Positions 11,151-46,966 of a stretch of 64,000 bases of DNA are shown here, piece by piece. How positions within the stretch are numbered: position 1 is the first letter of the stretch; every line of letters begins with the position of its first letter. Both the position numbers and the translations under genes were made by a program. Source of the stretch: an uncultured Alphaproteobacteria bacterium (GTDB taxonomy: Bacteria; Pseudomonadota; Alphaproteobacteria; ATCC43930; CGMCC-115725); contig CAVQJP010000022.1 in assembly GCA_963712825.1 (NCBI GenBank), positions 927-64,926 on the forward strand. Reading direction: 5' to 3'. Below the pieces are notes generated by a model. That model made no database searches. It was not told the DNA's origin and was given only the letters and a program-made list of their open reading frames with translations.

Positions 11151-11639
11151 TCAGCGCTGGATGTCCACCGTAGGGCATTCGGGATGAAGCTGTTGATATT
11201 GTTGACCGTCGAACCGAGCCTCGCAGGGGGTGTAGAGCCGGCGATAGCCATGATCGCGTCGCTGAAGAATGTCGATGTTGTCGGAACCGTCATCGTCGTA
11301 GAGAAGGCGGCAGATACCGGCCTGCTCCACCTCCCCAATCAGTAGCTTGCAGCCGGCGGTACCGCACCACCTTTCGCCTTCGATCAGGAAGAAATAACTC
11401 CTGCGACCGTTCCGATTGAGATAGCCCGATGCAACTTTGGCATCCGCCAGCATCTTTTCTTCCGAATGCGAATCGTTCCATTGGCTGGCAGGGTAAATTT
11501 GATCGAAGCAGCGTACTTCGTCAGTACCTAATTTTATAGACCAATTGAGGCGTTTGGCGGCCGCCATATTTGCAACTAGAGGAGATAAACCAATAATGGC
11601 AAGCACAGATATGAAAATCCGCAAATACAAGCTATTCAT
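11151..11639 (-). CDS. secreted Cys-containing hypothetical protein (low-GC islet)
   Basis: Internal Met gives signal peptide 'MNSLYLRIFISVLAIIGLSPLVANMAAA'. The mature part has 6 Cys ('WCGTAGCKLLIGE'). Local GC is clearly below the flanks. Confidence 0.5.
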   Translation of the reverse strand: MNSLYLRIFISVLAIIGLSPLVANMAAAKRLNWSIKLGTDEVRCFDQIYPASQWNDSHSEEKMLADAKVASGYLNRNGRRSYFFLIEGERWCGTAGCKLLIGEVEQAGICRLLYDDDGSDNIDILQRRDHGYRRLYTPCEARFDGQQYQQLHPECPTVDIQR

Positions 11640-11900
11640 AGGGTGTATCTGCGAAGGTACGAAGACGCGTTTCAACAGCACGCTCTTGTCGCGTCAACGC
11701 GATACCCTTGCTGGTGGATCCATTTTTAGTGATTCGATCTAAATAGTTGTATACTGCTCCCGCACCCTCCCGATGGGCTGCCGGGCGATGTATCACTTTG
11801 CGTCCCCACACGCCAGGGGTATGATGCGGGAGGGGTAGACCCTCTCGCCGGCAAGTCGCATCCGTTATGGGATTCCCGCCGGCTGTGGAGCCTGTGGGAT

Positions 11901-12731: not shown

Positions 12732-12920
12732 AGATTTCCTTGACGGTGAGCGGCGCTCACTTTTGGCCTTAGGAAGCGCGCTCTTGGGCTGTTCGGCAAC
12801 CTTACGGAATACGCGCTCAAACTCCGGGCTGGGCGTCTCAGCCTCGACTTCTCGGGCCATGTCAATGAAGCGCTTCGATTGCTCGGGATCATCGGGTTGC
12901 GGCTTGGGTTTGCGAGGCAT
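12726..12920 (-). CDS. small Lys/Pro/Glu-rich hypothetical protein
   Basis: 64-aa internal-Met ORF 'MPRKPKPQPDDPEQSKRFIDMAREVEAE...'. Its 3' end overlaps the converging 11901-12731 gene by 6 nt. Confidence 0.35.
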   Translation of the reverse strand: MPRKPKPQPDDPEQSKRFIDMAREVEAETPSPEFERVFRKVAEQPKSALPKAKSERRSPSRKSS

Positions 12921-13090
12921 GAACGGAATTATACCACAGACATTCGACAGACGAAGATTCCTGCGGCTGGTGGCGGGGGGTGCCGCAGTTGCTGGCGTTT
13001 CTCTTGCGATAACATCATGTAGTTCTCCTGATAAAAGACACGTCACCTCGATACAAATTGGAATCCGCTCTGAAATCAATTGTGCTCCAA

Positions 13091-13588
13091 TTACATCCCA
13101 AGCCATGTTAATGAGACAACATTGAGTTTCTCCGACACCATTAGCTCAAAACCAGACAGAACATCAAGCCCTAAAATCACATCATGATAATTGCCCGTCG
13201 CTCTCAAATTCACAGCAGTCACGGGACCACCAATAACCAACATTTCCTGAGGAAATACCATTTGTGCAATATAGATCGACGTTTGGGAATTTATTCCAGT
13301 GAAGCTTGAGGATATTTCTCCAATGGCACGTAGGTGGAACATCTCGACTAGGGCGGTATCAATTCTCGTCACGTCTGAGCCGGTGTCAATGACGGCCGTT
13401 AACCCTCCCTTCATACCACTCGGGAGCCGATCGTCGCCAAGATTCCAAGTGGGGTCAGCGGCGACAGATATCGAAACTTTTGGGGCAAAATTCTTACCGA
13501 GCGCTTGGGCATACGCACCAAGCGGCTCAAACCGGCCGACGATGCTCTGGCCGATATTCATCACCATCGCTCCTGGGTTGGTTGGCAC
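13091..13588 (-). CDS. retropepsin-like (clan AA) aspartic protease
   Basis: 165-aa ORF with the catalytic 'AVIDTGSDVTRID' (D-T-G-S) and the downstream 'DVILGLDVL' motif of single-domain retroviral-type proteases. No signal peptide. Confidence 0.7.
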   Translation of the reverse strand: MPTNPGAMVMNIGQSIVGRFEPLGAYAQALGKNFAPKVSISVAADPTWNLGDDRLPSGMKGGLTAVIDTGSDVTRIDTALVEMFHLRAIGEISSSFTGINSQTSIYIAQMVFPQEMLVIGGPVTAVNLRATGNYHDVILGLDVLSGFELMVSEKLNVVSLTWLGM

Positions 13589-13694
13589 CTTCCAGGATAG
13601 CGACGGCGGGGGCGGGCGTCACCGCTTGCCCCCGCCAACGAGCGCCAATTCAAGCTGTCGCGGATCGGGCGTGATTGAAGCGCGACGCCGCGAT

Positions 13695-14647
13695 TTAGAA
13701 GGGCGGCTCGGCTTCAATTCCCCGCTGGCGACGAGTCGTTCGATAGGTGAGCCGCTTGCCCTTTGCGCCGACCAAGGCGCGATCGGCTCGCTCCAAATCG
13801 TCTACGCCGAGTGCGACTCGGTTGTTGTGCCGGAAATCAAATTCGGCAGCGTAGCGGTGCAGGTGCGCTTCGCTGACGTGGAAGTAGCAGCCGAACCGCC
13901 ACGCTTGAAGATCGAAAAGAAATTTTCAACCGTGTTGGTGTGCCAGAAGGCGGCGCGGACATATTCCTCGGCGCTGTGGTTGACGGAACCATGCCCGGCG
14001 AACCAGTCGCCGATGCCGGGATAAACCGGCGCATCGTCGGTCATCAGGTAGCTCGCGCGGTCAACGTTGGCGGTAATGACCGGCCCCAAAGTCGCCGCAG
14101 TCACGTTCGAGACATGGAAGCTGCGCACGCGCCCGTCGCGCTCGACCAGCGAGAGGATGATTTCCTTGGGCGGGATCTTCCCCTTCCGGTTTGCGGCTCT
14201 GCCGCCGACATAGGTTTCATCAGCCTCGACAACCTGATTTGCGCCGCCGAGCGGGCCGACCGGATCAATTCCAAGTTCGGTCATGGCCTCGCGAACGCGA
14301 TGACCGAGAAACCACGCGGTCTTCAACCCACAACCGAAGGTGCGCTGAAGCTGGCGGGTCGAAATCCCCTTCTTCGACGAGCAGAACAAGTAGATCGCCT
14401 GGAGCCAAACCCGCATCGGCACGTGGCTCAACTCAAAGACCGTGCCGATCTTGACGGTGAAGGGCTTCCGGCAGGCATAGCACTTGTACAGACCAACCCG
14501 ATTGGTCTTTCCCCGCAACTTGCCAGCGTGTTCCTTGGTCGCGCCGCAATGCGGGCAAACCGGGCCATCGGGCCATAGCCGCGCTTCGGCGAACTCGTAA
14601 GCGGCCTCTTCGCTATGGAAATGTGCGGCGGAAAGGTGGGATTGCAT
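13695..14647 (-). mobile_element. IS1595-family transposase gene, one frameshift near 13870
   Basis: N-terminal zinc ribbon 'CPHCG...YKCYACRKPFTVKIGTVFE' and 'ETYVGG' are present. After 'NTVENFFSIFKRG' the family-typical 'YFHVSEAHLHRYAAEFDFRHNNRVALGVDD...' continues in another frame down to a TAA at 13695. Confidence 0.8.
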
Positions 14648-14877
14648 GGCCTATCTCCTTGACCATGCTCAATCTAGCACTAGCGGCTGGGAACGTCAAG
14701 TGAAACATCGCCGGAATCTCAATCGTACAAGGCAATCCTCCAGCGCCCCAACCTTATAAATTCCCGATTAACGTCGCCATTGCCCGTGATCTTGGTAAGG
14801 AACAGCCTATACGCGTTCCTACACCATTTGGAAATATTACTGTCGTATATTTAAGAAAATACGAGAGTTCCCGAATT

Positions 14878-15055
14878 AGTTGGTAAGGCGGGTGGAGCGC
14901 AGCACAACCCACCGCCGGCTGAACGGGTAAATGCTTCGGCCGTTGCGAGGCCTCGGATCGGCGGCAACGTTACCTTCAGTTGGTAGGGCGGGTGAAGCGT
15001 AGCGCACCCGCCACCGGTTGTGCCGGCATTATGGCGGGTGCTACCCGCCCTACGG
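14878..15055. repeat. cluster of three REP-type palindromic units upstream of sucA
   Basis: Copy 1 is 'agttggtaaggcgggtggagcgcagcacaacccaccgcc' (14878-14916). Copy 2 is 'agttggtagggcgggtgaagcgtagcgcacccgcc' (14978-15012). An inverted short copy 'atggcgggtgctacccgccctacgg' lies at 15031-15055. Confidence 0.6.
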
Positions 15056-15242
15056 ACCCAACCCATTCGGCAGTATTCGGATTATCACGCCCCGTCGCCC
15101 ATACGCAGAGCGCAAATCAGCAATTCGCAACCGCTTCCGGCATAGCATCCCTATATATCAGACGGCAAAAGGCGCTATCCACGGCAGGGGAAGGGCCCCG
15201 CTTTTGCATAATTTCCTATCGGGAAAGTACGCAGAGTCATCG

Positions 15243-18060
15243 ATGGCTGATATCGACGGTGCGAATTTTCTGACCGGCGCCAATGCGGGATTTATTGCCG
15301 ATCTCTACGCGCGCTTTCTCGACGACCCCGGTTCGGTCGACGAGAGCTGGCGCGGGTTCTTCAGCGAAATCGGCGAGGAGGGGGCGGGCGCGTTGCGCGC
15401 ACCCGTTTGGGAGAAACCCGCCGCCCACAGTGGCAACGGTGCGGCGGCGCCGGTTCCGGATGCCGGTGCATTGCGCCGGGCGACATCCGACTCGATCCGC
15501 GCGTTGCAGCTGATCCGCGCCTATCGCGTGCGCGGCCATCTCGAGGCCGACCTCGACCCGCTCGGGCTCGAAAAGCGCGGCCCTTATCCCGAGCTTGATT
15601 ACCGCAGCTACGGGTTTTTCGAGGCCGATCTCGACCGCGAGATTTTTCTCAACAACGTCTTTGACCGCGAGCGCGCCCGTCTGCGCGAGATCATCGCGAT
15701 CCTGCGCGAGACTTATTGCGGCACGATTGGCGTCGAATACATGCACATCCAGGTCCCAGCCGAACGCGCCTGGATCCAGGAGAAGTTCGAGAAACACCGC
15801 CGCCGCCCCAAATTTTCGGCGGCTGAGAAACAAGAAATTCTCGGCGTCCTGACCACGGCCGAGACCTTTGAGCGGTTTCTCGACCGGCGCTACACCGGCA
15901 CCAAGCGCTTTGGCATCGAGGGCGCGGAATCGCTGATGCCGGCGCTGGAGGCGATCCTGCGCCGCGGCTCGGCGCTCGGTGTCGAGGAATACGTGATCGG
16001 CATGCCGCATCGCGGCCGGCTCAACGTGCTCGCCAACTTTGTCGGCAAGCCCTATGCCGCGATCTTTTCCGAGTTCCAGGGCAATTCGGTCAACCCCGAG
16101 CATGTCCACGGCTCGGGCGACGTCAAATACCACCTCGGCACCTCGGCCGACCGCGAGATCGCCGGCAAGACCGTGCATCTGTCGCTGGCCGCGAACCCGT
16201 CGCATCTGGAAGCGGTCAACCCGGTCGTGCTGGGCAAGGTGCGCGCCAAGCAGCAGCAGCGCGGCGACGATGCGCGGCGCGAGGTCGCCGGCATCCTGAT
16301 GCATGGCGACGCCGCTTTTGCCGGGCAGGGGCTCGTCGCCGAGTCGCTGGAAATGTCGGAGCTGACCGGGTTTTGCACCGGCGGCACAATCCACGTCATC
16401 GTCAACAACCAGATCGGGTTTACCACCGCGCCCTCGGCGGCGCGGTCGAGCCCCTATCCCTCCGACATCGCCAAGGCGGTGCAGGCGCCGATCTTTCACG
16501 TCAACGGCGACGATCCCGAGGCGGTGGTGGAGGTCGCGATCGCCGCCGCCGAATACCGCCGCGAATTCGGCAAGGACGTCGTCGTCGACCTGTTCTGCTA
16601 TCGCCGCCACGGCCATAACGAAGGCGACGAGCCGGCCTTCACCCAGCCCTTGATGTACCGCACGATCGCCCGCCATCCGACGACCCGGCAGATTTACGCC
16701 GCGCGTCTGGTCGAGGAGGGTATCATCGCCGAGGGCGAGGCCGAGGCGATGGCGGCGCATTTTGCCGCCCGCCTCGAAAGCGAGTTCGAATCAGCCAAGG
16801 GCTACCGCCCGAACAAGGCCGACTGGCTCGAAGGCGCCTGGGCCGGGCTCGCCGAAGCGCCCGACGACGAGCGCCGCGGCGACACCGCCGTCGCGATCGC
16901 ATCGCTGCGCGAGCTCGGCCGCGGTCTGACGACGGCGCCGGCGGGATTTCGCCTCAACCCCAAGATCGCCCGCCAGCTCGACGCCAAGCGCGCCGCGATC
17001 GAGGCCGGCGACGGCATCGACTGGGCGACCGCGGAGGCGTTGGCGATCGCCTCGCTCTGCGCCGAGGGAACGCATGTGCGGATGTCAGGCCAGGACAGCG
17101 GCCGCGGCACCTTCTCGCACCGCCACGCGGTCTTGGTCGATCAGGAGAGCGAGGAGCGGTATGTCCCGATCGACCATGTGCGGGCGGGGCAGGCGCGGTT
17201 CGACATCATCGACAGCCCGCTCTCCGAAGCGGGCGTGGTCGGGTTCGAATACGGCTACAGCCTCGCCGACCCGGCGAGCCTGGTGCTGTGGGAAGCGCAA
17301 TTCGGCGATTTCGCCAATGGCGCGCAGGTCATCATCGACCAGTTCCTCTGCGCCGGCGAAGCCAAGTGGCTGCGCATGAGCGGGCTCGTGCTGCTGTTGC
17401 CGCATGGCTACGAAGGCCAGGGGCCGGAGCATTCCTCGGCCCGCATCGAGCGCTATCTGCAGCTCTGCGCCGAGGACAACATCCAGGTCTGCAACCTGAC
17501 GAGTGCTGCCAATTATTTCCACGCATTGCGGCGCCAGGTGCGGCGCAATTTCAGAAAGCCGCTCGTCGTCTTCACCCCGAAATCGCTGCTGCGCGCGAAG
17601 GAGGTCGCCTCGCGCCTCGACGAGATGGGACCGGGAAGCTCGTTTCACCGGGTCATCGACGATCCCGGTCCTGATCGCCGACGCCGACCAAATTCGCCGC
17701 GTCGTGCTGTGCTCGGGAAAGGTCTATTTCGACTTGGCAAAGGCGCGGGCGGCGAGCGGCGACGACCGCGTGGCCCTGATCCGGGTCGAGCAGCTCTACC
17801 CATTTCCGTTCAAGACGCTCGCCAAGGTGCTGGCGCCCCGGCGCAACGCCGAGATCGTGTGGTGCCAGGAAGAGCCGCAGAACATGGGGGCGTGGAATTT
17901 TGTCGACCGGCGCATCGAGCAGGTGTTGTCGAGCCTCGATGTCGCCGCCAAACGGCCGCGCTTTGTCGGGCGGGCCGAGGCCGCGTCGCCGGCGACCGGT
18001 CTCTTCAAACGCCATGTCGAGGAGCAGGCGCTGCTCGTCAACGACGCCCTCGCCGCCTGA
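15243..18060 (+). CDS. sucA: 2-oxoglutarate dehydrogenase E1 component, with a frame change near 17655
   Basis: '[40 protein letters not shown]' at ATG 15243, with a long E1o-type body. After 'FHRVIDDP' the conserved tail '[23 protein letters not shown]...[10 protein letters not shown]...' continues in ORF 17503-18060. This looks like one extra base in 'gatcccggtc'. Confidence 0.9.
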
Positions 18061-18077
18061 TTTTGGGGGACGTGGCG

Positions 18078-19471
18078 ATGGCGATCGAAATCAAGGTGCC
18101 GAGCCTCGGCGAATCGGTCACCGAGGCGACGGTCGCGAAATGGCTGAAGCAGCCAGGCGAGGCGGTGGCGGTCGACGAGCCGGTGGTCGAGCTCGAAACC
18201 GACAAGGTCAATGTCGAGGTACCGGCGCCCGCGGCCGGGATGCTCGCCGAAATCGTCGCCGCGGAAGGCGCCAGCCTCCCCGTCGGGAGCGTGCTTGGAC
18301 GGATCGGCGACAGCGCGACGGTGCCAGCTGCGCATCCGACCCCACTTGAGGCCACTCTGCCGCTGCCGGCCGAACAGGCGACCTCGAGTGCAACCCCACC
18401 CGAAGGACTAGCGGGTCGACCCCGCGCCCGCCCTTACCCACCCAGCCATGCCGGCTGGGTCCCCTCTCTCCCGCGGTGCGGGAGAGGGCGCCGATGCTCG
18501 GACTATGATCCGGGGAGAGGCGGGTCAGGGCGGCGCCGCGTCGGCGCTGGCGCGCTCGGGGCCGGCGGTGCGCAAGCTGGTAGCGGAAAGTGGGCTCGAT
18601 GCCGCGGCAATCGCACCGACCGGACCCGGCGCGCGCATCACCAAAGCCGATGTCGCCCAAGCATTGGCGCGCCCGATGCCGGCTCACCCGGTCGAGCCGC
18701 CACCGGCTCCGGCATCCCCGCCGGCTGAGGCTCGGGCACCGGCGCCGGTTGGCGAGCGCGAGGTGCGGGTGCGGATGACGCGCCTCCGGCGCCGCATCGC
18801 CGAACGGCTGAAAGCGGCGCAGAACACCGCCGCGATGCTGACCACCTTCAACGAAATCGACATGAGCCGGACGATCGCGCTGCGCGAGCAGTGGCGCGAG
18901 GCGTTCGAGAAAAAGCACGGCGTTCGCCTCGGCTTTATGTCGATCTTTGTGAAGGCGTCGATCGCCGCGCTGAAGGAAGTTCCCGGCGTCAACGCCGAGA
19001 TCGACGGCGACGACATCGTCTACAAAAATCATTACGACATAGGGGTCGCGGTCGGGACCGAAAGCGGGTTGGTCGTACCGGTGTTGCGTGACGCCGACCG
19101 GATGGGCTTTCGCCGATATCGAGAAGGAGATCGCCGCCCTCGGGCGCAAGGCGCGCGACGGCAAATTGACGATCGAAGATCTGTCCGGCGGCACCTTTAC
19201 GATTTCGAATGGCGGCATCTACGGCTCGCTACTGTCGACGCCGATCCTGAACCCGCCACAATCGGGCATCCTCGGCATGCACAAGATCGAGCGCCGCCCG
19301 GTCGCGGTGGCCGGTGCCGCCCGGAGCGCCGAAACGATCGAAATCCGGCCGATGATGTATGTGGCGTTGTCCTATGACCACCGCATCGTCGACGGCCGCG
19401 AAGCCGTCGGCTTTCTGGTGCGGGTCAAGGAATTGGTCGAGGACCCGTCGCGGCTGTTGTTCGAGATCTGA
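18078..19471 (+). CDS. sucB: dihydrolipoyllysine-residue succinyltransferase (E2o), read in three frames
   Basis: The lipoyl domain '[41 protein letters not shown]' starts at 18078. The E3-binding '[15 protein letters not shown]' and catalytic core are in ORF 18448-19377. '[39 protein letters not shown]' is in ORF 19088-19471. Frame changes lie at ~18430-18530 and ~19095. Confidence 0.85.
18428..18533. repeat. 106-bp nested-palindrome (REP/MITE-like) element inside the sucB linker
   Basis: The outer arms are 'ccgcccttaccc' and 'gggtcagggcgg'. The inner hairpins are 'cccagcc-atgcc-ggctggg' and 'ccctctctcccgc-ggt-gcgggagaggg'. Boundaries are approximate. Confidence 0.55.
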
Positions 19472-35916: not shown

Positions 35917-36966
35917 TTAACCAGTGTGTCGCTCTTTTTGATAGAGGTTCCGCAGCCCTGTCGCGCAGCTTTCGGCCGAGCCCGTGCCCGGCACCCTCCC
36001 TTCGCGCGCAAGCTGCAAACACACCGCAGAAAGGGAGGACCTTTCCGTTGCCATTATACGGTCTATCTCCGGAAACAGCGCTCGACGATCGGCATCGAAG
36101 CGCCTTACGCGGCCGGGCTTCGGCCCATGGGTTCGCGCTATGCGCGGTCTCTCTGGCACCGCCGGCGGCGCCGCGTCAGCGGCGGCGAGCGCTGCAGCTC
36201 CCTTGGATTTCGCCGGCACCGCTTCCGCTTCGCCAGCCGCCAGAGCAGCCACCGCTGCCGCTCCATCAGGTTCCGACGCCGGCGCACCCGCTTCCGCCGC
36301 GCCGCGTGGCGCCGACGCGGTCACCGCGTCCTTTTCGACCTCGCAAATTTCGGCATCCTGTAAAATGGAGCCGTCGAGAAATTCGACACTACCGCGCGCG
36401 AAATCAAAGCCCCGCGCAGCGACCTCACCTGATCGCGTCACCAGCTCGCCGGTTACGCTGCGGCCAGTGATCACAAGATCGCCCGAACTAAGCCGAGCGC
36501 GCAAATCCAACTCTACGTGCTGCACCTTTTCGAGGTATTCGATCATCTCTTTAACAGGCCAAAACGTGATCCTGATGCTCCCCGGCCATCTGAACCAAAG
36601 CTTTTGCCAATGATCTATCGTCTCCCGCACAAGCCCTACCGGCCGGTTATCTGCTGCGCGCCCGTATTCGACCACCAGGTGTTCAGCGAGCACGCCGAAT
36701 TCTAGCGCCTCATCCCGCAGCTCCGCGGCGATCTCCAATTGTCGCCGCACCGCCGAGCCATCAACAGCGCCAATTATCCACGCCGTCAGCTTGTTGCGGA
36801 ACCTATACGCGCCAGGCGGCCCCTTCGCTGCTGCTGCCGGCGGCCCTCCATAAAGTTCCAGCCATTCCAGAAAAGTCGGCACGGGCGCACCCTTGCGATG
36901 CGTGTCCCTGCGGAAAAAAGAAGGCGGCGCGGCAGCTCGCGCAGGGTGCGAGCGATCGGCGGCCAA
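35917..36966 (-). CDS. hypothetical protein of the integrative module
   Basis: 349-aa ORF between integrase and excisionase, with an Ala-rich low-complexity linker and a basic C-terminal segment. No recognisable motif. Confidence 0.45.
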   Translation of the reverse strand: MAADRSHPARAAAPPSFFRRDTHRKGAPVPTFLEWLELYGGPPAAAAKGPPGAYRFRNKLTAWIIGAVDGSAVRRQLEIAAELRDEALEFGVLAEHLVVEYGRAADNRPVGLVRETIDHWQKLWFRWPGSIRITFWPVKEMIEYLEKVQHVELDLRARLSSGDLVITGRSVTGELVTRSGEVAARGFDFARGSVEFLDGSILQDAEICEVEKDAVTASAPRGAAEAGAPASEPDGAAAVAALAAGEAEAVPAKSKGAAALAAADAAPPAVPERPRIARTHGPKPGRVRRFDADRRALFPEIDRIMATERSSLSAVCLQLAREGRVPGTGSAESCATGLRNLYQKERHTG

Positions 36967-37069: not shown

Positions 37070-38413
37070 TCACGCGACCTCAGCCGGGCGAATCGGTGCG
37101 CCGCCGGCGGCGATGGCGCGACCCTGCATGTCGACAACCTTTGCCGGTTCCTTGCCAGCGCAGAAATCGTCCCATAGCTGGCTCAGCCGCCGGCGGAGGG
37201 CGAGGGCGTCGCCGCGGCGATAGGCTTGGTCGACCTTGTCGCCAAGCCAGTGTCCGACCGCCAGCTTGCGCGTTTCTTCGGGGATCGTCGGATGTTCCTC
37301 GGCCGCCCAGTCGGAGAATGTGCTGCGGTCCGAACCGTGCACTGTGACTTCGAAGTCGCCGGCGAGCTGGCGCATCAGCTTCAACGGCGCTTTGAGCGAG
37401 ACGCCGGGGAATACGGGTGTATCCGCACCGGTATCCGCCGGCCGGCCGGCGGCCAAGATCGCCGCGGCGCGGCCATTGAGCGGGCATCGCCATATATGCC
37501 CCGATTTGTGTTTTCGCGGTCCGACGCCGGGCACCGTCCATAGTCGCGCTTCCAGGTCGATCTCAGGCCATGGCATCGGCGCCTTGCCGTGATTGTTGCC
37601 GATGACCTCGCCTGGCCGTGCGTTGGTCAAGATGCAGAACTCCAAGGCGCGTGCGACGGTGCTGTCAACGGCCCGCAGCTTTACCATAAAACCCGGCATC
37701 TCAGCCCATGGGAGCGCTTTATGATGCTCATCTTGTGTAGGTTCTGCGCGCGCGAGCAGATGTTCTAGGTGGCCTTTCCAGCGCGCCGGGTTCTCGCCGG
37801 TCCTGAGCTTCATGGCGCCGGCGCGGTCGAGCACCTTCTCGACCCGGTTGCGGATCCGCTCGGCCGTCGGGCGCTTGGTTTCCCAAATCGGCTGCAGGAT
37901 GCGCAGCACATCGTCTGTTTCGATCGTATCGACCGGCATCTTGCCGAGCACCGCAAAGGCGTAATCGGCAAGCGACTGGCGCCACTGCGCCTCGCTGCCG
38001 CCGTTCGCCGACCAGCCTGAACGCATGGCGACGATGGTATCTTCGGCGATCGCCTCGAATGTGCGTCCCTTGGCTTTCGCCTTGGTAATCGTCGCACCGA
38101 TGCGGGCCGCCCGCTGGGCCTCCTTCTCGCCGATCGGGTCGACCCGTTCCCGCACCCGCTTGCGCAGCTCCAGCGCTTTATCGCGGGCCTCGGCGAGGCT
38201 GTAATCGTCGACCGAGCCGAGTCCCATATCACGGGTCTTGCCGGTCGCCGGCGACACAAACCGAAAGACCCAGGACCGATGCACGGCCTTTCCGTCCTTC
38301 GCCGGGTGGACATGGATATACAGGCCGCCGCCATCCCCGAGCATGACCGGTTTGCTACCATTTGGTTTAGCGGTCTTAACCGTGATCGCGCTTAGCTGGC
38401 TCCGGACTGCCAT
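37070..38413 (-). CDS. tyrosine-type integrase (P4-like, DUF4102 N-terminal arm-binding domain)
   Basis: Internal Met 'MAVRSQLSAITVKTAKPNGSKPVMLGDGGGLYIHV...RSWVFRF' gives the DUF4102 domain. The C-terminal catalytic region has 'TNARPGEV', 'HGSDRSTFSDW' and 'LGDKVDQAYRRGD'. Confidence 0.9.
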   Translation of the reverse strand: MAVRSQLSAITVKTAKPNGSKPVMLGDGGGLYIHVHPAKDGKAVHRSWVFRFVSPATGKTRDMGLGSVDDYSLAEARDKALELRKRVRERVDPIGEKEAQRAARIGATITKAKAKGRTFEAIAEDTIVAMRSGWSANGGSEAQWRQSLADYAFAVLGKMPVDTIETDDVLRILQPIWETKRPTAERIRNRVEKVLDRAGAMKLRTGENPARWKGHLEHLLARAEPTQDEHHKALPWAEMPGFMVKLRAVDSTVARALEFCILTNARPGEVIGNNHGKAPMPWPEIDLEARLWTVPGVGPRKHKSGHIWRCPLNGRAAAILAAGRPADTGADTPVFPGVSLKAPLKLMRQLAGDFEVTVHGSDRSTFSDWAAEEHPTIPEETRKLAVGHWLGDKVDQAYRRGDALALRRRLSQLWDDFCAGKEPAKVVDMQGRAIAAGGAPIRPAEVA

Positions 38414-38573
38414 CGGCCAATTTCCTCTCCCATTCTCTATCCCATAGAAATATACCGGATACAGCCGACCGTCAACGAGCAATACCGAATAACAAGCGCC
38501 GTCGGCGTGGGCCAAGATTGAAGCGATCTCAACGGCTTGCAAATTTATTTCGCCACGAAATCAAGCGCCAAAT

Positions 38574-40270: not shown

Positions 40271-41701
40271 GTGAACGCTTCGCGGGAGGACCGCTGCACG
40301 CCGGGTTGGCTGGCGACCATTTTTATTCACTTTTGCGGCGTGCTGTTTGGCGCGAGCCTGTATATCGCCTCGCCCGCTTTGGCCCAGCCGGTTTCCGGCA
40401 GCGAGCAAACCCGCCTCGAAGCGCAGAAGGAAGCATTGTTTCAGCAGATGCTGCGCAACCCCGCCAATCTCGACGCCACCTTTGCCTATGCCGATGTCTC
40501 CGCGCGCCTCGGCGACTACGAGGCAGCGGTGTCAGCGCTCGAGCGCATGCTGCTGTTCAACCCGAATTTGCCGCGGGTCCAGCTCGAGCTTGGCGCGCTG
40601 TACTTTCGCATGGGGTCATACGACCTCGCGCAAGATTATTTTGCAAAGGCTGCGGCCGGCAACCCGCCGCCCGAGGTCCGCGCCCGCATCGCCGAGTACA
40701 TGGCGCAAATCGACAAGGCCACCTCGCGCCATCACCTGTCCGGCTACATCTTTTTCGGCGGCCAATACCAGAGCGACGCCAATGTTGCCCCCGGCTCGCC
40801 GCTGATCCTGTCGCCGATCGGCGCGGTATTGCTCAACAGCCAGTTCGTCAAGCAGCCCTCCGGCAGCATCTTCGGCAGCGGGTCGGTGCTGTACAGCTAT
40901 GACCTCGAAGACCAGCGCCGCGACACGATCGACCTGACCGCGGTCGGCTACGGCAATCATTACTTCAACTCCAGCGTCAGCCGGCTCGACCTCGATCTGT
41001 TGGAGGTGACCGGCGGTCCGCGGTTCAACTTTCCCAACGGCGGCCTGCTCGGCAACGTCCTCGCCTCGGTCAAGCCTTATGCGATTTTCGATGAGGTCGG
41101 CTTGGGCGAGGAGCAGTATTTCAACGCCTACGGCACCGGGCTCGAATATGACGAGACCGTGTGGAACGACATGCTGGTCAAAACCGCGTTCGAGTTTCGC
41201 CAGAAGAACTTTACCGATGCGCCCGACCGGCCGCTGTCGCGTGGCCTCAACGGCAGCGACAAGCTCGTCAGCGTCTCGGCGACCAAGCCCGTTGCGGCAA
41301 ACGCCGCGCTCAATCTTGAGCTCGACTATCTCGACCAGACCACCCGGCTGCCCTATTACACCAATTCGACCTATGCCGTAATCGGCGCTTACCGGGTTCA
41401 TTACGACGCACCGTTAAAGGCGACCCCGTATCCCTGGGAAACGTCGTTTTTTATCGGCCGCGCCTGGAGCATCTACGCGTCGCCGGACCCGTGCTGCAAT
41501 ACCAGCAGCGACCCCGAGACGACCTTTTCAGCGGCCAGCCAATTGACCCAGCGCTGGCGCTTCGGGTTGACCCAGGCGGTTGCGGTGACACCCCGAATGG
41601 CGGTTGTATTGCAATTGGAGCGCGATATCGTCTCATCGAATTTACCAATTTACGCGTACACCAGCAATTCTGTCTTGCTCGGGCCGCAAATTCGCTTTTA
41701 A
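40271..41701 (+). CDS. TPR plus outer-membrane beta-barrel protein, Slam/DUF560-like (type XI secretion candidate)
   Basis: GTG 40271 lies 10 nt after AGGAGGAG. The leader ends 'ASPALAQP'. TPR-like 'LGDYEAAVSALERMLLFNPNLPRVQLELGALYFRMGSYDLAQDYF' is followed by a ~300-aa alternating beta-strand region ending 'GPQIRF' (a terminal aromatic OMP signal). Confidence 0.7.
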   Translation: MNASREDRCTPGWLATIFIHFCGVLFGASLYIASPALAQPVSGSEQTRLEAQKEALFQQMLRNPANLDATFAYADVSARLGDYEAAVSALERMLLFNPNLPRVQLELGALYFRMGSYDLAQDYFAKAAAGNPPPEVRARIAEYMAQIDKATSRHHLSGYIFFGGQYQSDANVAPGSPLILSPIGAVLLNSQFVKQPSGSIFGSGSVLYSYDLEDQRRDTIDLTAVGYGNHYFNSSVSRLDLDLLEVTGGPRFNFPNGGLLGNVLASVKPYAIFDEVGLGEEQYFNAYGTGLEYDETVWNDMLVKTAFEFRQKNFTDAPDRPLSRGLNGSDKLVSVSATKPVAANAALNLELDYLDQTTRLPYYTNSTYAVIGAYRVHYDAPLKATPYPWETSFFIGRAWSIYASPDPCCNTSSDPETTFSAASQLTQRWRFGLTQAVAVTPRMAVVLQLERDIVSSNLPIYAYTSNSVLLGPQIRF

Positions 41702-41731
41702 AGAGAGCCCAAATTCGCTTTTAAGCCGGTA

Positions 41732-44700
41732 ATGGGCCGAAACGAGGTTTTAATGCCACGCACCTTCCGCCTGCGGCATGCCGTCATGCTCGGCTGCTTG
41801 ATCATGGCGGCCGCGCTGACCAGCCCGGCCGGCTTCGCCCAGCAGCGCGTCGGCGTCAACAGCGCGGTCAACCCGGCCGCCATGGGGATTCCGCCGGGCG
41901 GCCTGCCGCGGCGGCTCGTGCTGGGTCAAGACGTTGTCTACAACGAGCGGATCACCACCCAGGCGACGGGCCAGACGCAGGTCCTGTTTGTCGACGAGTT
42001 GACCCTGTCGATCGGTCCCGACGCGAACATGGTGATCGACCAGTTTGTCTACGATCCGAGCGCCGGCACCGGCAAATTGGCGGCGAGCCTGACCCGCGGC
42101 GTGTTCCGCTTTGTCGGCGGCAAGCTCAGCAAGCACGACGGTGCGGTGACGATGCGCACGTTGAGCGCGACGATCGGCATCCGCGGCGGCGTCATGCTGG
42201 TCGACCAGGCCGCCGATGGCCGCCTGGAAGTCATTTTCGTGTTCGGCAAAGCGGTTGTCGTGAGCGGGCTCAACGGCGTGTCGCAGACGATCTTCCGGCC
42301 CGGCTTCGAGGTCACGGTGGCGGGTCCCGGCGCCTCGCCCTCCGACCCGAAGCCGGCGCCGCCGGGACGCACCGCCGCCCTGCTCGCCCAGCTCGACGGA
42401 CGCGCCGGCGGCAATGGCGGCGCCCCGATCGTCCCGACCGAGGTCACCGTCACCGAGAGCGGCATCGCCAGCGTGATTTCGGAGAATATCGTCGCCAGCA
42501 TCCAGGCTGCGGCGAAAACCCAGCCGCTGCAGCCGCAACCCAACACCGTCGCCCCGGTGGTGACGCAGACCGAGCTCAACAATCAAAACGTCTCGGTCTC
42601 AGGCGCGACCGCGACACCCGCCGGCGGTGGCGCGACGGTGCCGTTTAACCAGTTTTTCACCGGCAATTCCAGTCAGGGCAATAATTCCGGCAACAATTTC
42701 GGGAATTCGGGCGGGAACGGCAGCAACCCGTTCGGCGGCGGCAACAGCGGCCAGGCCAACAACGGTCAAGGCAATGGCGGCCAGGCAAATAACGGGAGTG
42801 GCGGCAACAACGGCGGCGGTCAAGGGAACAACGGCGGCGGCGGCCAGGGCAATAACGGCGGCGGCCAGGGCAACAACGGCGGCGGCCAGGGCAACAACGG
42901 CGGCGGCGGCGGCAACGGCGGCAACAACGGCGGCGGCGGGACGGGAACCGGCACGCCGGTCACGATCGCCGGCGTCGCCGGCGCCTATTACAATACCGGA
43001 ACGCAGGGAACCGCCACCGGCTTTGCCGGCATGCTCTCGCCCTATGCCGGCGCCGATGCCGTAAAAGGTGCATTCACCGCGACCGGGGGCTTTGGCAAGG
43101 TCAGCTTTCCGCTGATCTCGGGCGCCGCGACGCTGCCGTCCTCGGGGGCGGGGACGACGAGCCCGCTCGGCCCGGTCACCGGCACGACCTATGTCGCACC
43201 CGACAACAGCTTTTTTTACGCCGACCTGACGCCGGTCAACCAGCCCTCGCAACGCGAGTTCATCTACGGCGGGACCCCGGTCGCCGCGGCCTTCTACCAG
43301 GCGACCGCGAAGAGCCCGAGCTATCTCGCCTTCAACGTCCGGCCCGACGCGGCGCTGCAATCGAGCATTCCGTTTATCCGCCTTCCGACCGGCGGCGCGC
43401 TGGCGGGCAGCGCCAGCGTCTCGCCGCTGATCCTGGCGACCCCGCTCGGCGGCACGTTCTCGACTGGGAGCGGCGGCACCAAGGCATTGCAGGCGAGCCT
43501 GGCGGTGGTCGGTTCGGGGCCAGGCCAAAGCTCGGTCCTGGTCGTCCTGGTGGGCAATGTTTTCGACGCCTCGCTCAACGGCGCGAGCCCGCCGCAGCCG
43601 ATCCTCAACGGCATCATTCACGGCAGCTATCTGGCGAATGCCGCCGGCCAGCCGATCCGCATCTTCGCGCCCTACGTGACCCCGGCCGACACCAACGGCA
43701 ACAGCTTTTACGGCAGCAAGAGCATTTCGGGTCTGGTGCTGAGCAACGGCAATTGCTGCGGCGCCGGCGAGATCAACTCGCCGGCCAGCGAAACCAACGC
43801 CGCCAGTCAAACGGTCGGCACCTACCAATTCGCGCAACCGGCGACGGCGACGGCGGTGCCGCAGAGCGTGTCGGGGGCCGCGCAGACGACGCGGACGCTT
43901 ACCGGATATTTTGGCGGGATCATGAGCAAGGAGCCCAATTCCGGCTCGACCGCGAGCCCGATCCCCTATGTCCTTGCCGGTTCGGCAACGGTCAACACCA
44001 ACGCCGCCAATCTGCAGGCCGAGGCGCGGTTGAGCGGCACCGACCCGTTTGCCGTCACGAGCGGCAGCGGAATCAGCTCGGTCAATCTCGGCTACGGCTC
44101 GCTGACCGGCGGCACCAACGCCCGCATCGCCTATATCAACGATAATCTGTTTGCGCTGATGGAAAACCCGTCGACGCCGTCGACGGTCAACGGCGTCACC
44201 GTTCCGGTCACCGACGGCAACACGGGTTCGAACATATACCTCGCCACGCAAAGCGCGGCGCCGGTGCCGACCACCTTGCTGGCCAACGGCCTGTGCAGCA
44301 CCTGCCAATATCTGCAATGGGGATATTGGGGCGGCGCGCTCGATACGCCGGCGTCCGGCGGCAGCCCGGCGCGGACCGATGTCGCCCACATCAATTTCTG
44401 GGTCGCTGGGACGCCGGTGACCCCGACCGGCACGATCTCCAGCCTGGTCGCCAGCAACTTTACCGGTCGATATTTCGGCAATTTGATTGGCACGGTCTAC
44501 AACAACGGCGCGCAATACCTTGCGTCCGGAGGTCTTCAGGCGATTTATCATTTCGGCAGCCAGACCGGGACGTTCAACGTCTCGAATTACGACGGCCTGA
44601 GCTTCTCGGCGAACGGCGCCGCAAAGCTGTCGGGCGCCAGCTATTCCTTCGGGATCAACAACGTGCGCGGGCTGGCCGGGCACGTCAACGGTGCCTTTTA

Positions 44701-44803
44701 CGGCCCGGCGGCCGCCGAAACCGCGGGCAATTTCGCATTTCAGAAGACCGTCGGCGCGCCCTACTTCACGTCCGGAATCTTCGCCGCCGGCCCCAAGCCC
44801 TAA
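41732..44803 (+). CDS. 1023-aa secreted protein: FecR-like domain, G/N-rich linker, large unassigned region, TbpB-like C-terminal beta-barrel (putative T11SS cargo)
   Basis: Signal peptide 'MLGCLIMAAALTSPAGFAQQ' with no lipobox Cys. FecR-type 'VLFVDELTLSIGPDANMVIDQFVY...GVFRFVGGK...ATIGIRGG'. C-terminal 'WGYWGG...FTGRYFGNLIGTVYNNG...GTFNVSNYDGLSF...GHVNGAFYGPAAAETAGNFAF...GIFAAG'. The start may instead be the second Met at 41753. Confidence 0.75.
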   Translation: MGRNEVLMPRTFRLRHAVMLGCLIMAAALTSPAGFAQQRVGVNSAVNPAAMGIPPGGLPRRLVLGQDVVYNERITTQATGQTQVLFVDELTLSIGPDANMVIDQFVYDPSAGTGKLAASLTRGVFRFVGGKLSKHDGAVTMRTLSATIGIRGGVMLVDQAADGRLEVIFVFGKAVVVSGLNGVSQTIFRPGFEVTVAGPGASPSDPKPAPPGRTAALLAQLDGRAGGNGGAPIVPTEVTVTESGIASVISENIVASIQAAAKTQPLQPQPNTVAPVVTQTELNNQNVSVSGATATPAGGGATVPFNQFFTGNSSQGNNSGNNFGNSGGNGSNPFGGGNSGQANNGQGNGGQANNGSGGNNGGGQGNNGGGGQGNNGGGQGNNGGGQGNNGGGGGNGGNNGGGGTGTGTPVTIAGVAGAYYNTGTQGTATGFAGMLSPYAGADAVKGAFTATGGFGKVSFPLISGAATLPSSGAGTTSPLGPVTGTTYVAPDNSFFYADLTPVNQPSQREFIYGGTPVAAAFYQATAKSPSYLAFNVRPDAALQSSIPFIRLPTGGALAGSASVSPLILATPLGGTFSTGSGGTKALQASLAVVGSGPGQSSVLVVLVGNVFDASLNGASPPQPILNGIIHGSYLANAAGQPIRIFAPYVTPADTNGNSFYGSKSISGLVLSNGNCCGAGEINSPASETNAASQTVGTYQFAQPATATAVPQSVSGAAQTTRTLTGYFGGIMSKEPNSGSTASPIPYVLAGSATVNTNAANLQAEARLSGTDPFAVTSGSGISSVNLGYGSLTGGTNARIAYINDNLFALMENPSTPSTVNGVTVPVTDGNTGSNIYLATQSAAPVPTTLLANGLCSTCQYLQWGYWGGALDTPASGGSPARTDVAHINFWVAGTPVTPTGTISSLVASNFTGRYFGNLIGTVYNNGAQYLASGGLQAIYHFGSQTGTFNVSNYDGLSFSANGAAKLSGASYSFGINNVRGLAGHVNGAFYGPAAAETAGNFAFQKTVGAPYFTSGIFAAGPKP
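42812..42930. repeat. imperfect 21-bp tandem repeats encoding GGGQGNN units
   Basis: 'ggcggcggccagggcaa(c/t)aac' is reiterated ~5 times inside a wider Gly/Asn low-complexity stretch (~42660-42950). Confidence 0.8.
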
Positions 44804-44833: not shown

Positions 44834-44859
44834 AAAAACCCGCCGGGGTGACCGGCGGG
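44834..44859 (-). terminator. intrinsic terminator between convergent genes
   Basis: CCCGCCGG-ggtga-CCGGCGGG hairpin with a T5 run on the minus strand. It is downstream of the 44909-45286 gene and also 3' of the cargo gene. Confidence 0.65.
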
Positions 44860-44908
44860 TCGAGGTGGTCTGATCGCTTTTTGTTTTATCCGGTAGGCAT
44901 CGCAGCTG

Positions 44909-45286
44909 CTAGCGGCCGGGGTTGGGACCGTCGCCCTTTTGCGAATAGGGTGACGGCGCATCGCCACCCGGCGGCGGCGTATAGGGCTCGTTGTTGGCAG
45001 ACACATTGCGTCCCGGGTTTGGGCCGGCGCCGCTCGAATAGGGATGATAGGCCGGGTTGGAGCTCCAGTCGGCCGGCTTTTGGTATGCCGCCGTGCCTGG
45101 AATGTTGACGTTGCTGCCCGGGTTCGGCGACGCGACCTGGGGTGGCGCATAGGCGGGCGTCTGCACCGCGGCCTTTGGTTGCGCCCCGGCCGGCGGCAAG
45201 TTGGCAACGCTCTGGGCATGGGCCGCCATCGCAGCGCCGGTCAAAAGAGCAAGGCTGAGGAGTGACGATTTGGACAAGCACCGCAT
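44909..45286 (-). CDS. small secreted Pro/Gly/Asn-rich protein (paralog A)
   Basis: Signal peptide 'MRCLSKSSLLSLALLTGAAMAAHA', then 'QSVANLPP...HPYSSGAGPNPG'. It shares these motifs with 45521-45904. Confidence 0.6.
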   Translation of the reverse strand: MRCLSKSSLLSLALLTGAAMAAHAQSVANLPPAGAQPKAAVQTPAYAPPQVASPNPGSNVNIPGTAAYQKPADWSSNPAYHPYSSGAGPNPGRNVSANNEPYTPPPGGDAPSPYSQKGDGPNPGR

Positions 45287-45520: not shown

Positions 45521-45904
45521 TCAGTTGGGCTTTGGCCCGATGCCCGAGCTGTAAGGATGAAGGGAAGGGTTATTGTCGGTCGCGGTCGCCTGATAACGGG
45601 CACTCTTGCCCGACGACTGCGTGCCCGGGCTCGGTCCGATCGAGGTCGAATACGGGTGATCGGCTTTCTCGGTCGCGTAGTCAGCCGACGGCTGATAGTG
45701 TTCGTCCCGGAAAAATTGGGAACCGCCGGGCTTCGGGTAAAAGCTTTGGGTCGAGCCGTAAGGCGCGGTAACCGCGCTTTGCATTGCAGCGGGGGCGGCG
45801 CCGCCATTCGGGGGCAGCGAGGCGACAGACTGAGCCTGCGCGGCCGTGGTCGCGCCGACCGCCAGCGCAAAACCAAAGAGGGTGGATTTGACGATACTCG
45901 CCAT
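45521..45904 (-). CDS. small secreted Pro/Gly/Ser-rich protein (paralog B)
   Basis: Internal Met with a GGAGA RBS. Signal peptide 'MASIVKSTLFGFALAVGATTAAQA', then 'QSVASLPP...HPYSTSIGPSPG...HPYSSGIGPKPN'. Confidence 0.6.
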   Translation of the reverse strand: MASIVKSTLFGFALAVGATTAAQAQSVASLPPNGGAAPAAMQSAVTAPYGSTQSFYPKPGGSQFFRDEHYQPSADYATEKADHPYSTSIGPSPGTQSSGKSARYQATATDNNPSLHPYSSGIGPKPN

Positions 45905-45994
45905 GTCAGCATCTCCAATGAGGCTGTAAAACAATCGGCCCGCAATTTCGCCATGTTGCGCTTTTTGCGCAAATGATAATGCTGCATCGCACAC

Positions 45995-46966
45995 ATGAAT
46001 AATATTCATTTCGGAGCGCTCGACCTCAACCTGCTGCGGGTATTCGACGCCCTGATCGAGGAGCACAGCGTCACCCGCGCCGGCGAGCGGCTGGGTTTGA
46101 CGCAGTCGGCGATCAGCCACGCATTAAGCCGGCTGCGCTACGTTCTCGACGACGAGCTCTTCGTGCGCGGTCCGGAAGGGATGCGGCCGACCCGGCGGGC
46201 CGCCGAGATAGCACCCCGGCTGCGTCAGGGGCTGCTGCAGCTTCAGCTGGCGCTGACCCCCGCCGATTTTGTCGCCGAGCAGACCACGCGGCGGTTCACC
46301 ATCATCTGCGGCGAGTATGTCGGCGCAGTCTATGTGCCTGCTCTGGTTGCCCGGCTGCGCGATGCCGCACCCCTTGCCGAGGTCAGGATACGGCCGAGCA
46401 ACATGGGCGTCGCCGAAGCGCTGCTCGCCGGGCGGGCCGACTTGGCGATCGGCAGCTTTCGGCGGGTTCCGGAGTGGTTCGCCTGCGAGCCGCTGTTCGA
46501 GGAAACGCGGGTCTGGGTGGTCAGCGACCGGCATCCTGCGGCCTGGCAGGAACTGACCCTGGAGCGGCTCGCCGCACTGCCGCATCTGATCATATCCGCG
46601 ACCGGGGAGGACGAGCAGGCGGTGGCGGGCTACGTCGTCGACCACGGTCTGGAACGGCTGGTCATGCGCAGCGAGGTCGGACTGCTGCAAGGCGCCTTGG
46701 CGGCGCGCGGCTTGAGCCGCGCGGTCGGCCTCACCACTCCGCATTTTCTGGCGGCGCTGGCGGTGGTGAGCCGCTCCGACATGGCCTGCCCGCTGCCGCG
46801 CCGGCTGGCGACCGCCTTTGCCGGCGCCTACCGGCTCAAGCTGTTTGAGCCGCCCTATACCTCGCCGCCCTTCGAGATCATGGCGCTGTCGCATCGCGAG
46901 CACGGCAGCGAGCCCGCGATCATGTGGCTGCGCGACATCGTCTGCCGCGTCGCCGCCGAGCTGTGA
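45995..46966 (+). CDS. LysR-family transcriptional regulator
   Basis: 'LDLNLLRVFDALIEEHSVTRAGERLGLTQSAISHALSRLR' is the LysR HTH. Full-length 323 aa, divergent from paralog B. Confidence 0.85.
   Translation: MNNIHFGALDLNLLRVFDALIEEHSVTRAGERLGLTQSAISHALSRLRYVLDDELFVRGPEGMRPTRRAAEIAPRLRQGLLQLQLALTPADFVAEQTTRRFTIICGEYVGAVYVPALVARLRDAAPLAEVRIRPSNMGVAEALLAGRADLAIGSFRRVPEWFACEPLFEETRVWVVSDRHPAAWQELTLERLAALPHLIISATGEDEQAVAGYVVDHGLERLVMRSEVGLLQGALAARGLSRAVGLTTPHFLAALAVVSRSDMACPLPRRLATAFAGAYRLKLFEPPYTSPPFEIMALSHREHGSEPAIMWLRDIVCRVAAEL

Follow-up and report, generated by a model that had tools for sequence, protein, structure and literature searches.

A divergent Slam-like outer-membrane protein and its constant FecR-module partner: a candidate envelope-sensing pair in Alphaproteobacteria

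Two neighboring genes in a 64,000-nucleotide stretch of contig CAVQJP010000022.1 (assembly GCA_963712825.1; hereafter the window), which derives from an uncultured alphaproteobacterium, encode an outer-membrane protein (OMP) and a large exported protein that we call the partner. The constant companion of this OMP across its family, down to 22% identity, is the FecR-like module at the partner N-terminus and not the C-terminal β-barrel known from cargo of type XI secretion systems (T11SS). By sequence comparison, the OMP is a true though strongly diverged Slam/T11SS-family protein, a relationship that is remote yet multiply supported. We give an even chance to the view that the two genes act as one functional unit, in which a divergent Slam-like OMP and a Sec-exported, non-lipidated partner would form a surface or envelope sensing device. 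The preliminary description of the locus had proposed a T11SS pair, by implication one defined by the barrel tag, with the FecR domain as an odd passenger. Its Slam-type OMP, barrel-bearing cargo and synteny all stand; the implied barrel-defined logic is not supported, as the FecR-like module is retained with or without a barrel and follows OMP divergence closely (rank correlation 0.9, versus 0.36 for the barrel), and CHASE2 cyclase genes recur beside related pairs.

Distant OMP neighborhoods disclose what is constant in the partner. In 6 of the 8 OMP relatives sampled, a protein with the FecR-like N-module follows the OMP gene within ~10–60 nt, and the module is recognizable by an invariant mature N-terminus (VGV..AVNP...VFRFVGG.LSK). 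The most distant relative sampled (L054) carries the full partner architecture including the barrel, and a short 538-aa version of the partner (L118) also has the barrel. Other partners are built differently. The OMP P0256 at locus L052, which scores above the cutoff of the Pfam Slam-barrel model SlipAM (PF04575, DUF560), is paired with a 439-aa protein that has a different C-terminal domain and no barrel; used as a query, this protein retrieved 218 relatives of ~250–680 aa, with the Pfam barrel family TbpB_B_D present in 2 of the 120 listed. Partners of 449 aa (L140) and 475 aa (L141, the complete genome of Methylosinus sporium, CP189553.1; OMP and partner genes at 168166–169500 and 169515–170942) stand after full-length OMP family members and possess neither body nor barrel. 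The same is true of a 277-aa FecR partner in a Stellaceae metagenome-assembled genome (MAG; L143), where the gene order is CHASE2-guanylate cyclase, OMP, partner. At these last three loci, the OMP lies 10–15 nt upstream of the partner and matches the family barrel hidden Markov model (HMM) at E values of 1e-77 to 1e-102. Since barrel-less FecR proteins are paired as tightly with their OMPs, the barrel cannot be what OMPs of this clade recognize in general. At the other extreme, a protein of at least 1406 aa (L080, 16–4233) joins the FecR-like N-module through a poly-Pro linker to >1100 aa unlike the window body; this region gave no Pfam match and no detectable TbpB-type barrel, and the contig start removes its upstream neighbor.

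Per-domain conservation was compared over 28 complete loci. Conservation is highest in the tetratricopeptide repeat (TPR) domain of the OMP (mean pairwise identity 0.76), followed by the partner FecR-like N-module (0.67), the OMP barrel (0.63), the partner C-terminal barrel (0.52) and the partner body, the least conserved folded part (0.44). When identity matrices, uncorrected for phylogeny, were compared with that of the OMP, Spearman ρ reached 0.89–0.90 for the FecR-like N-module and 0.36–0.37 for the C-terminal barrel. On this measure, the FecR-like module co-evolves with the OMP, and the barrel hardly at all.

Such a pattern recalls TpsA/TpsB systems, in which a conserved N-terminal module precedes a variable passenger. 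It is improbable, though conceivable, that the N-module (QQRVGV..AVNP) is a targeting domain read by the OMP TPR domain, with variable C-terminal passengers exported behind it; that these passengers would comprise the TbpB-like body, a DUF2135-like domain or the >1100-aa body is equally improbable. The constancy of the N-module over partner lengths from 277 to at least 1406 aa fits this idea, as do its tight covariation with the OMP and the likeness to TpsA/TpsB. N-terminal targeting, however, is without precedent in T11SS, and in the 277-aa partners almost nothing is left that could serve as a passenger. The OMP, moreover, lacks a POTRA domain, and its similarity to Omp85/TpsB is unconvincing (Omp85, 17.6 bits on the consensus).

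The pairing itself is robust. The genome set comprised 47 loci, all from Stellaceae or uncultured alphaproteobacterial MAGs, of which 45 were informative: in 42 of these, the OMP gene is followed by a partner gene of like orientation, directly adjacent in 40 of the 42, and orphan OMPs occur at L007, L009 and L036. A metagenome set of 80 loci was found with the N-module, and among the 53 informative on the upstream gene the OMP precedes the partner in 45 (30 directly adjacent, 15 with an intervening gene of ~1.2–2 kb). Body plus barrel are present in 28 of 29 complete metagenome partners. At least 160 partner homologs were detected, and an adjacent OMP–partner pair is also found in Azospirillum thermophilum. 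OMP–partner pairing is far beyond chance, and the synteny expected for the pair in related genomes was observed. In the window, the partner reading frame starts 31 nt past the OMP stop, as first described, and the two genes are probably co-transcribed.

Variations on this arrangement were seen at several loci. The intervening gene of the 15 metagenome loci (e.g., L069, L072, L086 and L100) specifies, wherever it was inspected, a conserved protein of ~263 aa, and at L016 (8533–9321) the gene between OMP and partner encodes a cytoplasmic-looking DUF6065 protein (PF19541, E 1e-96). Two tandem partner genes occur at L004 (8459–11431), the first split into a 601-aa FecR open reading frame (ORF) and a 374-aa TbpB_B_D ORF (26.5 bits), probably through frameshifts in a long-read MAG. 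Neither DUF6065 nor a second copy of the OMP or the partner was found in the 64-kb window.

Assignment of the OMP to Slam/DUF560 comes from family-level searches. Taken alone, the window OMP matches only TPR families (Pfam, residues 60–140; NCBIfam likewise), and TPR_Slam (PF24575) scores 15.5 bits, under its cutoff of 35.2. With only the barrel half as query, exhaustive phmmer searching retrieved 412 relatives at E ≤ 1e-3, counted at 50% clustering, most of them 440–480 aa long and of the same layout. Among 88 diverse relatives, 23 match SlipAM (best 1.1e-6) and 59 match TPR_Slam; P0256 scores 24.2 bits on SlipAM against a gathering cutoff of 22 and matches the window barrel at E 3e-41. The top Pfam match of the family consensus is SlipAM at 32.7 bits (cutoff 22). 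A tblastn search with the window OMP, covering 7.3 Gb of plasmid records, matched a "porin family protein" of Erwinia sp. E602 (E 2e-8, 24% identity, 93% query coverage), which is a canonical Slam (SlipAM 229.9 bits, TPR_Slam 95.8 bits) encoded directly after a PGAP-named "Slam-dependent surface lipoprotein" (TbpB_B_D 55.6 bits). By tblastn, the window OMP also matched a gonococcal ORF (E 2e-4) that scores 115 bits on SlipAM and 54.5 bits on TPR_Slam. The family barrel HMM spans positions 2–311 of 311 on both the Erwinia Slam (53.1 bits, E 1.3e-12) and the Neisseria gonorrhoeae Slam (32.8 bits, E 2e-6), with E values given for a nominal Z of 1e6 sequences. As the barrel-only search shows, many members of this clade escape Pfam's DUF560 model.

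The preliminary assignment to Slam/DUF560, as opposed to Omp85, TpsB or porin families, is upheld by the Erwinia match, the consensus score and the end-to-end HMM alignments. A reading of the OMP as "not DUF560" would have followed from single-sequence Pfam and NCBIfam searches alone, wrongly in view of the family-level and tblastn evidence. An autotransporter or two-partner secretion (TpsB/Omp85) reading was likewise rejected: Pfam scans of the window proteins and the 88 OMP relatives gave no match to POTRA, ShlB or autotransporter families, and the 17.6-bit Omp85 score of the OMP consensus is under cutoff.

Structure prediction agrees with the layout. The AlphaFold2 model of the OMP, built on the 88-sequence alignment, has a mean predicted local distance difference test score (pLDDT) of 90.9 and a predicted template-modeling score of 0.83, with helices at residues 43–150 and 14 long strands at 154–475, and the chain ends in ...LLGPQIRF. 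ORF reading, Pfam TPR matches and this model together agree with the leader, TPR helices, β-rich half and GPQIRF end noted at the outset, and the predicted strand numbers are those anticipated: 14 for the OMP barrel and 8 for the cargo tag. Searches of PDB sequences with the OMP, by phmmer and by profile, returned TPR proteins only, and a Foldseek search of the model against the PDB gave generic barrels and TPR-barrel exporters (BcsC, PelB, OprD, and OmpG at a template-modeling (TM) score of 0.58). No Slam structure is deposited there, so the fold search cannot test Slam membership. The window OMP is identical to a 476-aa database entry, "tetratricopeptide repeat protein [Stellaceae bacterium]", that comes from a Stellaceae MAG. 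The sole low-confidence barrel loop (residues 403–424, window 41477–41542; pLDDT ~58) contains a vicinal Cys pair (...SPDPCCNTSSDP...), which is not family-wide; the wider family consensus at this position is YDxPDPxVDP.

The partner combines a FecR-like N-module, a disordered linker, a β-rich body and a C-terminal barrel. Its FecR domain scores 26.3 bits on Pfam FecR (PF04773; cutoff 24) over residues 73–172, and the consensus scores 39 bits, consistent with the FecR domain of the first description. Foldseek relates the module to the periplasmic domains of the anti-sigma protein 4m0h (TM 0.54, root-mean-square deviation (rmsd) ~3 Å) and of PupR (6ovk). The A-x-A|QQRVGV signal-peptidase-I site that precedes it is kept in all 61 partner homologs compared. 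A lipobox-like match is absent from 58 of these 61, and no Cys is conserved in the signal peptide. The statement that the signal peptide has no lipobox Cys was right as to the lipobox; the peptide does contain a Cys, C22 ("MLGCL"), which sits in the middle of the h-region, outside any canonical lipobox, and is not conserved. A lipoprotein reading of the partner was rejected on these grounds.

The window linker of 179 residues (226–403) contains 55 Gly, 34 Asn and 15 Gln; in homologs, the linker spans 64–348 aa and is G/N-, P/T/V- or Q-rich, with a collagen-like PTGPTG version in Paracoccus. Many partner homologs (P0127, P0129 and P0131 among them) are labeled "trimeric autotransporter adhesin" by JGI, with no autotransporter domain detectable; the label is probably driven by the low-complexity linker. 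Body residues 421–850 gave no Pfam or PDB-sequence match, even as a 22-sequence profile, nor did the consensus, and hhalign of the body against the C-terminal barrel (probability 0.3) revealed no similarity and no hidden barrel copy. The Gly/Asn linker and unassignable body of the first description are borne out.

The C-terminal ~170 aa of the partner carry the motifs WGYWGG...FYGPAAAETAGNFAF...GIFAAG, and AlphaFold2 places eight strands at residues 911–1020 (nt 44462–44791). A 22-sequence profile of this region matches the NHBA/GNA2132 barrel (9.3e-8) and TbpB (1.5e-7), and more weakly fHbp, hemophilin and LbpB. Pfam TbpB_B_D matches 22 of 22 members (best 6.8e-8); taken singly, the window copy stays below the cutoff of 26 bits, at 13.9. 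In Foldseek, the C-terminus aligns with NHBA (6cuj; TM 0.71, 22% identity) and the top match is TbpB (E 7e-9). Profile, Pfam, model and fold search thus converge on the TbpB/NHBA-type eight-stranded barrel that had been recognized from the sequence alone. The Foldseek alignment of the partner to TbpB extends over ~600 columns but at a TM of 0.26 and an rmsd of ~20; with the body devoid of a sequence relative, a bilobed TbpB body or TbpB-like N-lobe is not claimed. A C-x-x-C motif stands before WGYWGG (window ~44303–44320, residues ~855–861), with C858 invariant in 61 homologs, and recurs in distant partners as CTCSFMSWGFW (L054) and CDCAFMAWGVW (Paracoccus). The barrel domain probably has a disulfide at its base.

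Given such a barrel, the pair could be a canonical T11SS: the barrel would be the targeting signal, the whole ~100-kDa protein would be exported and released or loosely held at the surface, and the FecR-like module would be an extracellular head spaced by the linker. This is possible, if somewhat doubtful. The homology of the OMP to Slams and the defining eight-stranded barrel of the cargo speak for it, as does the presence of body plus barrel in nearly all informative metagenome partners (28/29). Known cargo have variable N-terminal effectors, sometimes behind long disordered or repeat regions, and HphA and hemophilin are non-lipidated yet secreted Slam substrates (PMC12282271; 10.1101/2023.03.29.534853). 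Against these points stand the barrel-less FecR proteins that are equally tightly paired with full-length OMPs, the poor tracking of the OMP by the barrel (ρ 0.36) relative to the FecR-like N-module (0.9), and the periplasmic location of characterized FecR domains and CHASE2 sensor domains (PMC5498481; PMC5192318).

Genes for CHASE2 adenylate/guanylate cyclases provide the second recurrent association: their linkage to the pair recurs in related loci. On plasmid p1 of Shinella sp. H4-D48, the OMP, an 849-aa FecR...barrel protein and a CHASE2-cyclase are encoded in a row (MNR02_RS19720/19715/19710), and on Paracoccus aminophilus JCM 7686 pAMI5 (L149) the OMP (JCM7686_RS20545) and a 655-aa protein (FecR, PTGPTG linker, TbpB_B_D; RS24185) are again accompanied by a CHASE2-cyclase (RS20555). 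The first gene upstream of the OMP is a divergently oriented CHASE2 gene in 8 of 47 genome loci, as it is in the metagenome loci L073 and L079. Genes for cyclic nucleoside monophosphate (cNMP)-binding proteins flank the pair in Methylosinus, a cNMP-binding patatin-like phospholipase is encoded upstream in Paracoccus pAMI5, and a Crp-like regulator, recognized by sequence motifs only, is encoded upstream at L118; these neighbors reinforce the cyclic-nucleotide theme. The window FecR module itself matches, at E 4e-9, a Sinorhizobium meliloti FecR protein encoded beside a CHASE2 cyclase. In that species, the FecR-domain periplasmic protein SMc02177 is encoded beside the CHASE2 cyclase gene cyaD1 (PMC5498481), a type of linkage confirmed here. 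It is needed to control infection but dispensable for perceiving the signal (PMC5498481; PMC7529298; PMC13001267), and the TPR/β-barrel OMP NsrA (SMb20495) relays an external protein signal to the CHASE2 cyclases CyaD1, CyaD2 and CyaK (PMC7529298). Burkholderia and Pseudomonas aeruginosa encode LysM-FecR proteins alongside CHASE2 kinases (PMC5192318).

The constancy of the FecR-like N-module and the recurrence of CHASE2 point to surface sensing rather than plain secretion. In the sensing unit as we picture it, the partner would first be exported by Sec, and the OMP would then move its C-terminal body, tagged by the barrel, out to the cell surface as a T11SS does. The FecR-like module would act in the periplasm, where it would dock to the TPR domain of the OMP and, at loci with a CHASE2 gene nearby, also to the CHASE2 sensor. 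Such a device would bind or sense ligands at the surface and be coupled to the envelope; it would be neither a hemophore for nutrient uptake nor an enzyme set free from the cell. With no CHASE2 gene adjacent to the pair in the window, any signaling partner there would be encoded elsewhere. A tentative extension is a trans-envelope tethered receptor: the body would be threaded outward C-terminus first, the FecR-like module would stay periplasmic with the linker in the barrel lumen, and this module would take the place of a lipid anchor. Equally tentatively, binding of an external ligand might then be coupled to the OMP TPR domain and, in many relatives, to CHASE2 cyclases.

It is very unlikely, in our estimate, that nothing is translocated at all, with the OMP serving as a channel or scaffold, the partner wholly periplasmic and bound to the TPR domain, and the TbpB-like barrel acting as a periplasmic ligand-binding fold. 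Minimal 277-aa partners would suit such a scheme, FecR and CHASE2 domains are periplasmic in the literature, and all members here are known from sequence alone. Yet every characterized Slam-adjacent protein with this barrel is surface-exposed or secreted (PMC12282271; PMC9090332), and a surface location would agree with the length and disorder of the linkers and with the rapid evolution of body and barrel.

Several observations weigh against the sensing unit as proposed. Adjacent CHASE2 genes are confined to 8 of 47 genome loci and no CHASE2 homolog was found anywhere in the 64-kb window; no sigma-70/extracytoplasmic function (ECF) sigma factor or TonB-dependent receptor is present among the window neighbors. 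NsrA, the S. meliloti OMP likened to it, is much larger (~1200 aa) and is encoded elsewhere. Distant neighborhoods were sampled for only 8 OMP relatives (22–39% identity), with most partner genes cut by contig ends. The identity-matrix correlations carry no phylogenetic control, and diversifying selection or recombination, instead of a lack of interaction, may be why the barrel tracks the OMP weakly. As to Slam membership, the window OMP alone has no PF04575 match in Pfam, and the generic family OMP_b-brl scores 32.3 bits on the OMP consensus, near the SlipAM score.

Comparison with characterized systems delimits what is new. The Slam OMPs (Neisseria Slam1/2, Acinetobacter HsmA, Xenorhabdus NilB/HrpB) share with the window OMP a signal peptide, a TPR domain, a 14-stranded barrel of ~300 aa, a total length of 450–495 aa and a gene beside that of a TbpB_B_D-type barrel protein. 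The window OMP differs from canonical Slams in its identity to them of just ~24–25%, its failure to match either Pfam Slam model alone, its gene order (OMP, then cargo) and the absence of a nearby TonB-dependent receptor. The clade is further set apart by its constant partner element, the FecR-like N-module, by partners without a barrel (L052, L140, L141 and L143) and by its carriers, which are free-living soil Alphaproteobacteria. The known T11SS cargo (TbpB, LbpB, fHbp, NHBA, hemophilin/HphA, NilC and Pls) share the Sec signal and the C-terminal eight-stranded barrel with the partner, whose barrel is closest to the NHBA C-domain and TbpB. The partner is non-lipidated like HphA and hemophilin, and its disordered spacer with a variable N-terminal region is found in several predicted cargo classes (PMC12282271); its size of ~100 kDa with a FecR-like N-module and a 450-aa body without detectable relative distinguish it from known cargo.

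Slam acts as a translocon, aided by Skp (PMC9090332). The seven characterized T11SS come from animal-associated Beta- and Gammaproteobacteria, whereas 9 of the 10 clusters of DUF560 proteins belong to soil and water organisms, are without a characterized member and have largely unknown cargo (PMC8406197; PMC12282271). Alphaproteobacterial and non-lipidated T11SS are already known (PMC12282271; 10.1101/2023.03.29.534853). Cargo are united by the C-terminal barrel, and none of the ~ten catalogued architectures contains FecR; PF04773 appears in the supplement of the T11SS survey only as a neighboring regulatory gene, alongside sigma-70 (PMC12282271).

With the NsrA–CyaD1/D2/K–SMc02177 cascade of S. 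meliloti, likened here by component type, the related loci share the co-occurrence of a TPR/barrel OMP, a CHASE2 cyclase and a FecR protein. The S. meliloti FecR protein is only ~295 aa and, unlike the window partner, has no TbpB-like body and no adjacent OMP; it is dispensable for signal perception, and its CHASE2 neighbor has no counterpart in the window. The Burkholderia "BiofilmReg" and P. aeruginosa PA4035/4036 systems likewise couple a signal-peptide FecR protein genetically to a CHASE2 sensor (PMC5192318), but these lack an OMP and a TbpB-like barrel, have a kinase output and belong to Beta- and Gammaproteobacteria.

The FecR/PupR anti-sigma regulators (FecA–FecR–FecI) share PF04773 and the periplasmic-domain fold with the partner. 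In FecR/PupR, this periplasmic domain contacts the periplasmic domain of an outer-membrane protein. The partner differs in having no cytoplasmic anti-sigma domain or transmembrane helix, and its FecR module directly follows a cleavable signal peptide. An anti-sigma reading was rejected given these missing parts and the lack of an ECF sigma factor or TonB-dependent receptor nearby.

Through this locus, an extensive environmental clade of Slam-like OMPs comes into view. Partners defined by a FecR-like N-module challenge the barrel as the universal T11SS targeting element, and the CHASE2 link ties a secretion-system chassis to cyclic-nucleotide signaling. A testable structural hypothesis is thereby offered for the cooperation of FecR proteins with CHASE2 sensors and for the way in which OMPs such as NsrA signal inward. 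The tethered receptor, if true, would be a new form of cell-surface signaling on a type XI secretion chassis and a mechanistic model for NsrA-type perception. Cultured carriers (P. aminophilus with pAMI5, Shinella sp. H4-D48 with p1, M. sporium and A. thermophilum) make the system directly testable.

Table 1. Features of the OMP–partner locus, in window coordinates. AF2, AlphaFold2.
Feature	Position (nt)	Strand	Basis or remark
Divergent Slam/T11SS-family OMP gene	40271..41701	+	476 aa plus stop; ORF, Erwinia Slam tblastn, family profile
OMP signal peptide, residues 1–38	40271..40384	+	Predicted cleavage after ALA (...SPALA|QP); pLDDT low at 1–39
OMP periplasmic TPR domain, residues 43–150	40397..40720	+	Pfam TPR_19, TPR_14, TPR_2; AF2 helices
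OMP 14-stranded β-barrel, residues 154–476	40730..41698	+	...QIRF β-signal last; AF2 strands pLDDT >90; consensus SlipAM 32.7 bits
Intergenic spacer, 30 nt	41702..41731	+	No terminator-like site between genes; tight spacing kept in relatives
Non-lipidated partner/cargo gene	41732..44803	+	1023 aa from first ATG; 1016 aa from M8, the gene callers' start
Partner Sec/signal-peptidase-I signal peptide, residues 1–36	41732..41839	+	Putative cleavage ...AGFA|QQRVGV
FecR-like N-module, residues 37–225	41840..42406	+	Pfam FecR; AF2 β-domain pLDDT 82–96; Foldseek
Disordered Gly/Asn/Gln linker, residues 226–403	42407..42940	+	pLDDT <50
β-rich body, residues 404–850	42941..44281	+	pLDDT mostly >90
C-terminal TbpB/NHBA/fHbp-type region, residues 851–1023	44282..44800	+	C..C motif, β-hairpin 861–893, 8-strand barrel
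Terminator-like GC hairpin	44837..44872		Between partner gene and converging small gene; both-strand pattern scan, consensus match only

The pair lies in a region of ~65% GC, and its window neighbors encode an AMP-binding enzyme, two small secreted proteins, a LysR regulator and a two-component system. A mobile-element origin of the pair was rejected: its chromosomal context is conserved, and 33 of 47 loci share the AMP-binding gene upstream. In the window, a tyrosine integrase of phage type (Arm-DNA-bind_3 plus Phage_int_M; 37070–38542, minus strand) is encoded 1.7 kb upstream of the OMP, beside a 349-aa ORF without a Pfam family (35917–36966, minus strand); no tRNA gene was found in the window. 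Elsewhere, GC falls from 0.65–0.69 to 0.53–0.60 at ~10000–16000, a stretch that is possibly foreign DNA, with a 1236-aa ORF next at 15018–18728. Converging on the 3′ end of the partner gene are two genes for small secreted Pro/Gly-rich paralogs (44909–45286 and 45521–46120, both minus strand), 40.6% identical to each other. They share the motifs AQAQSVA.LPP and HPYS..GP.PG, belong to no Pfam family, and have homologs at the same position in 18–20 of the 47 genome loci.

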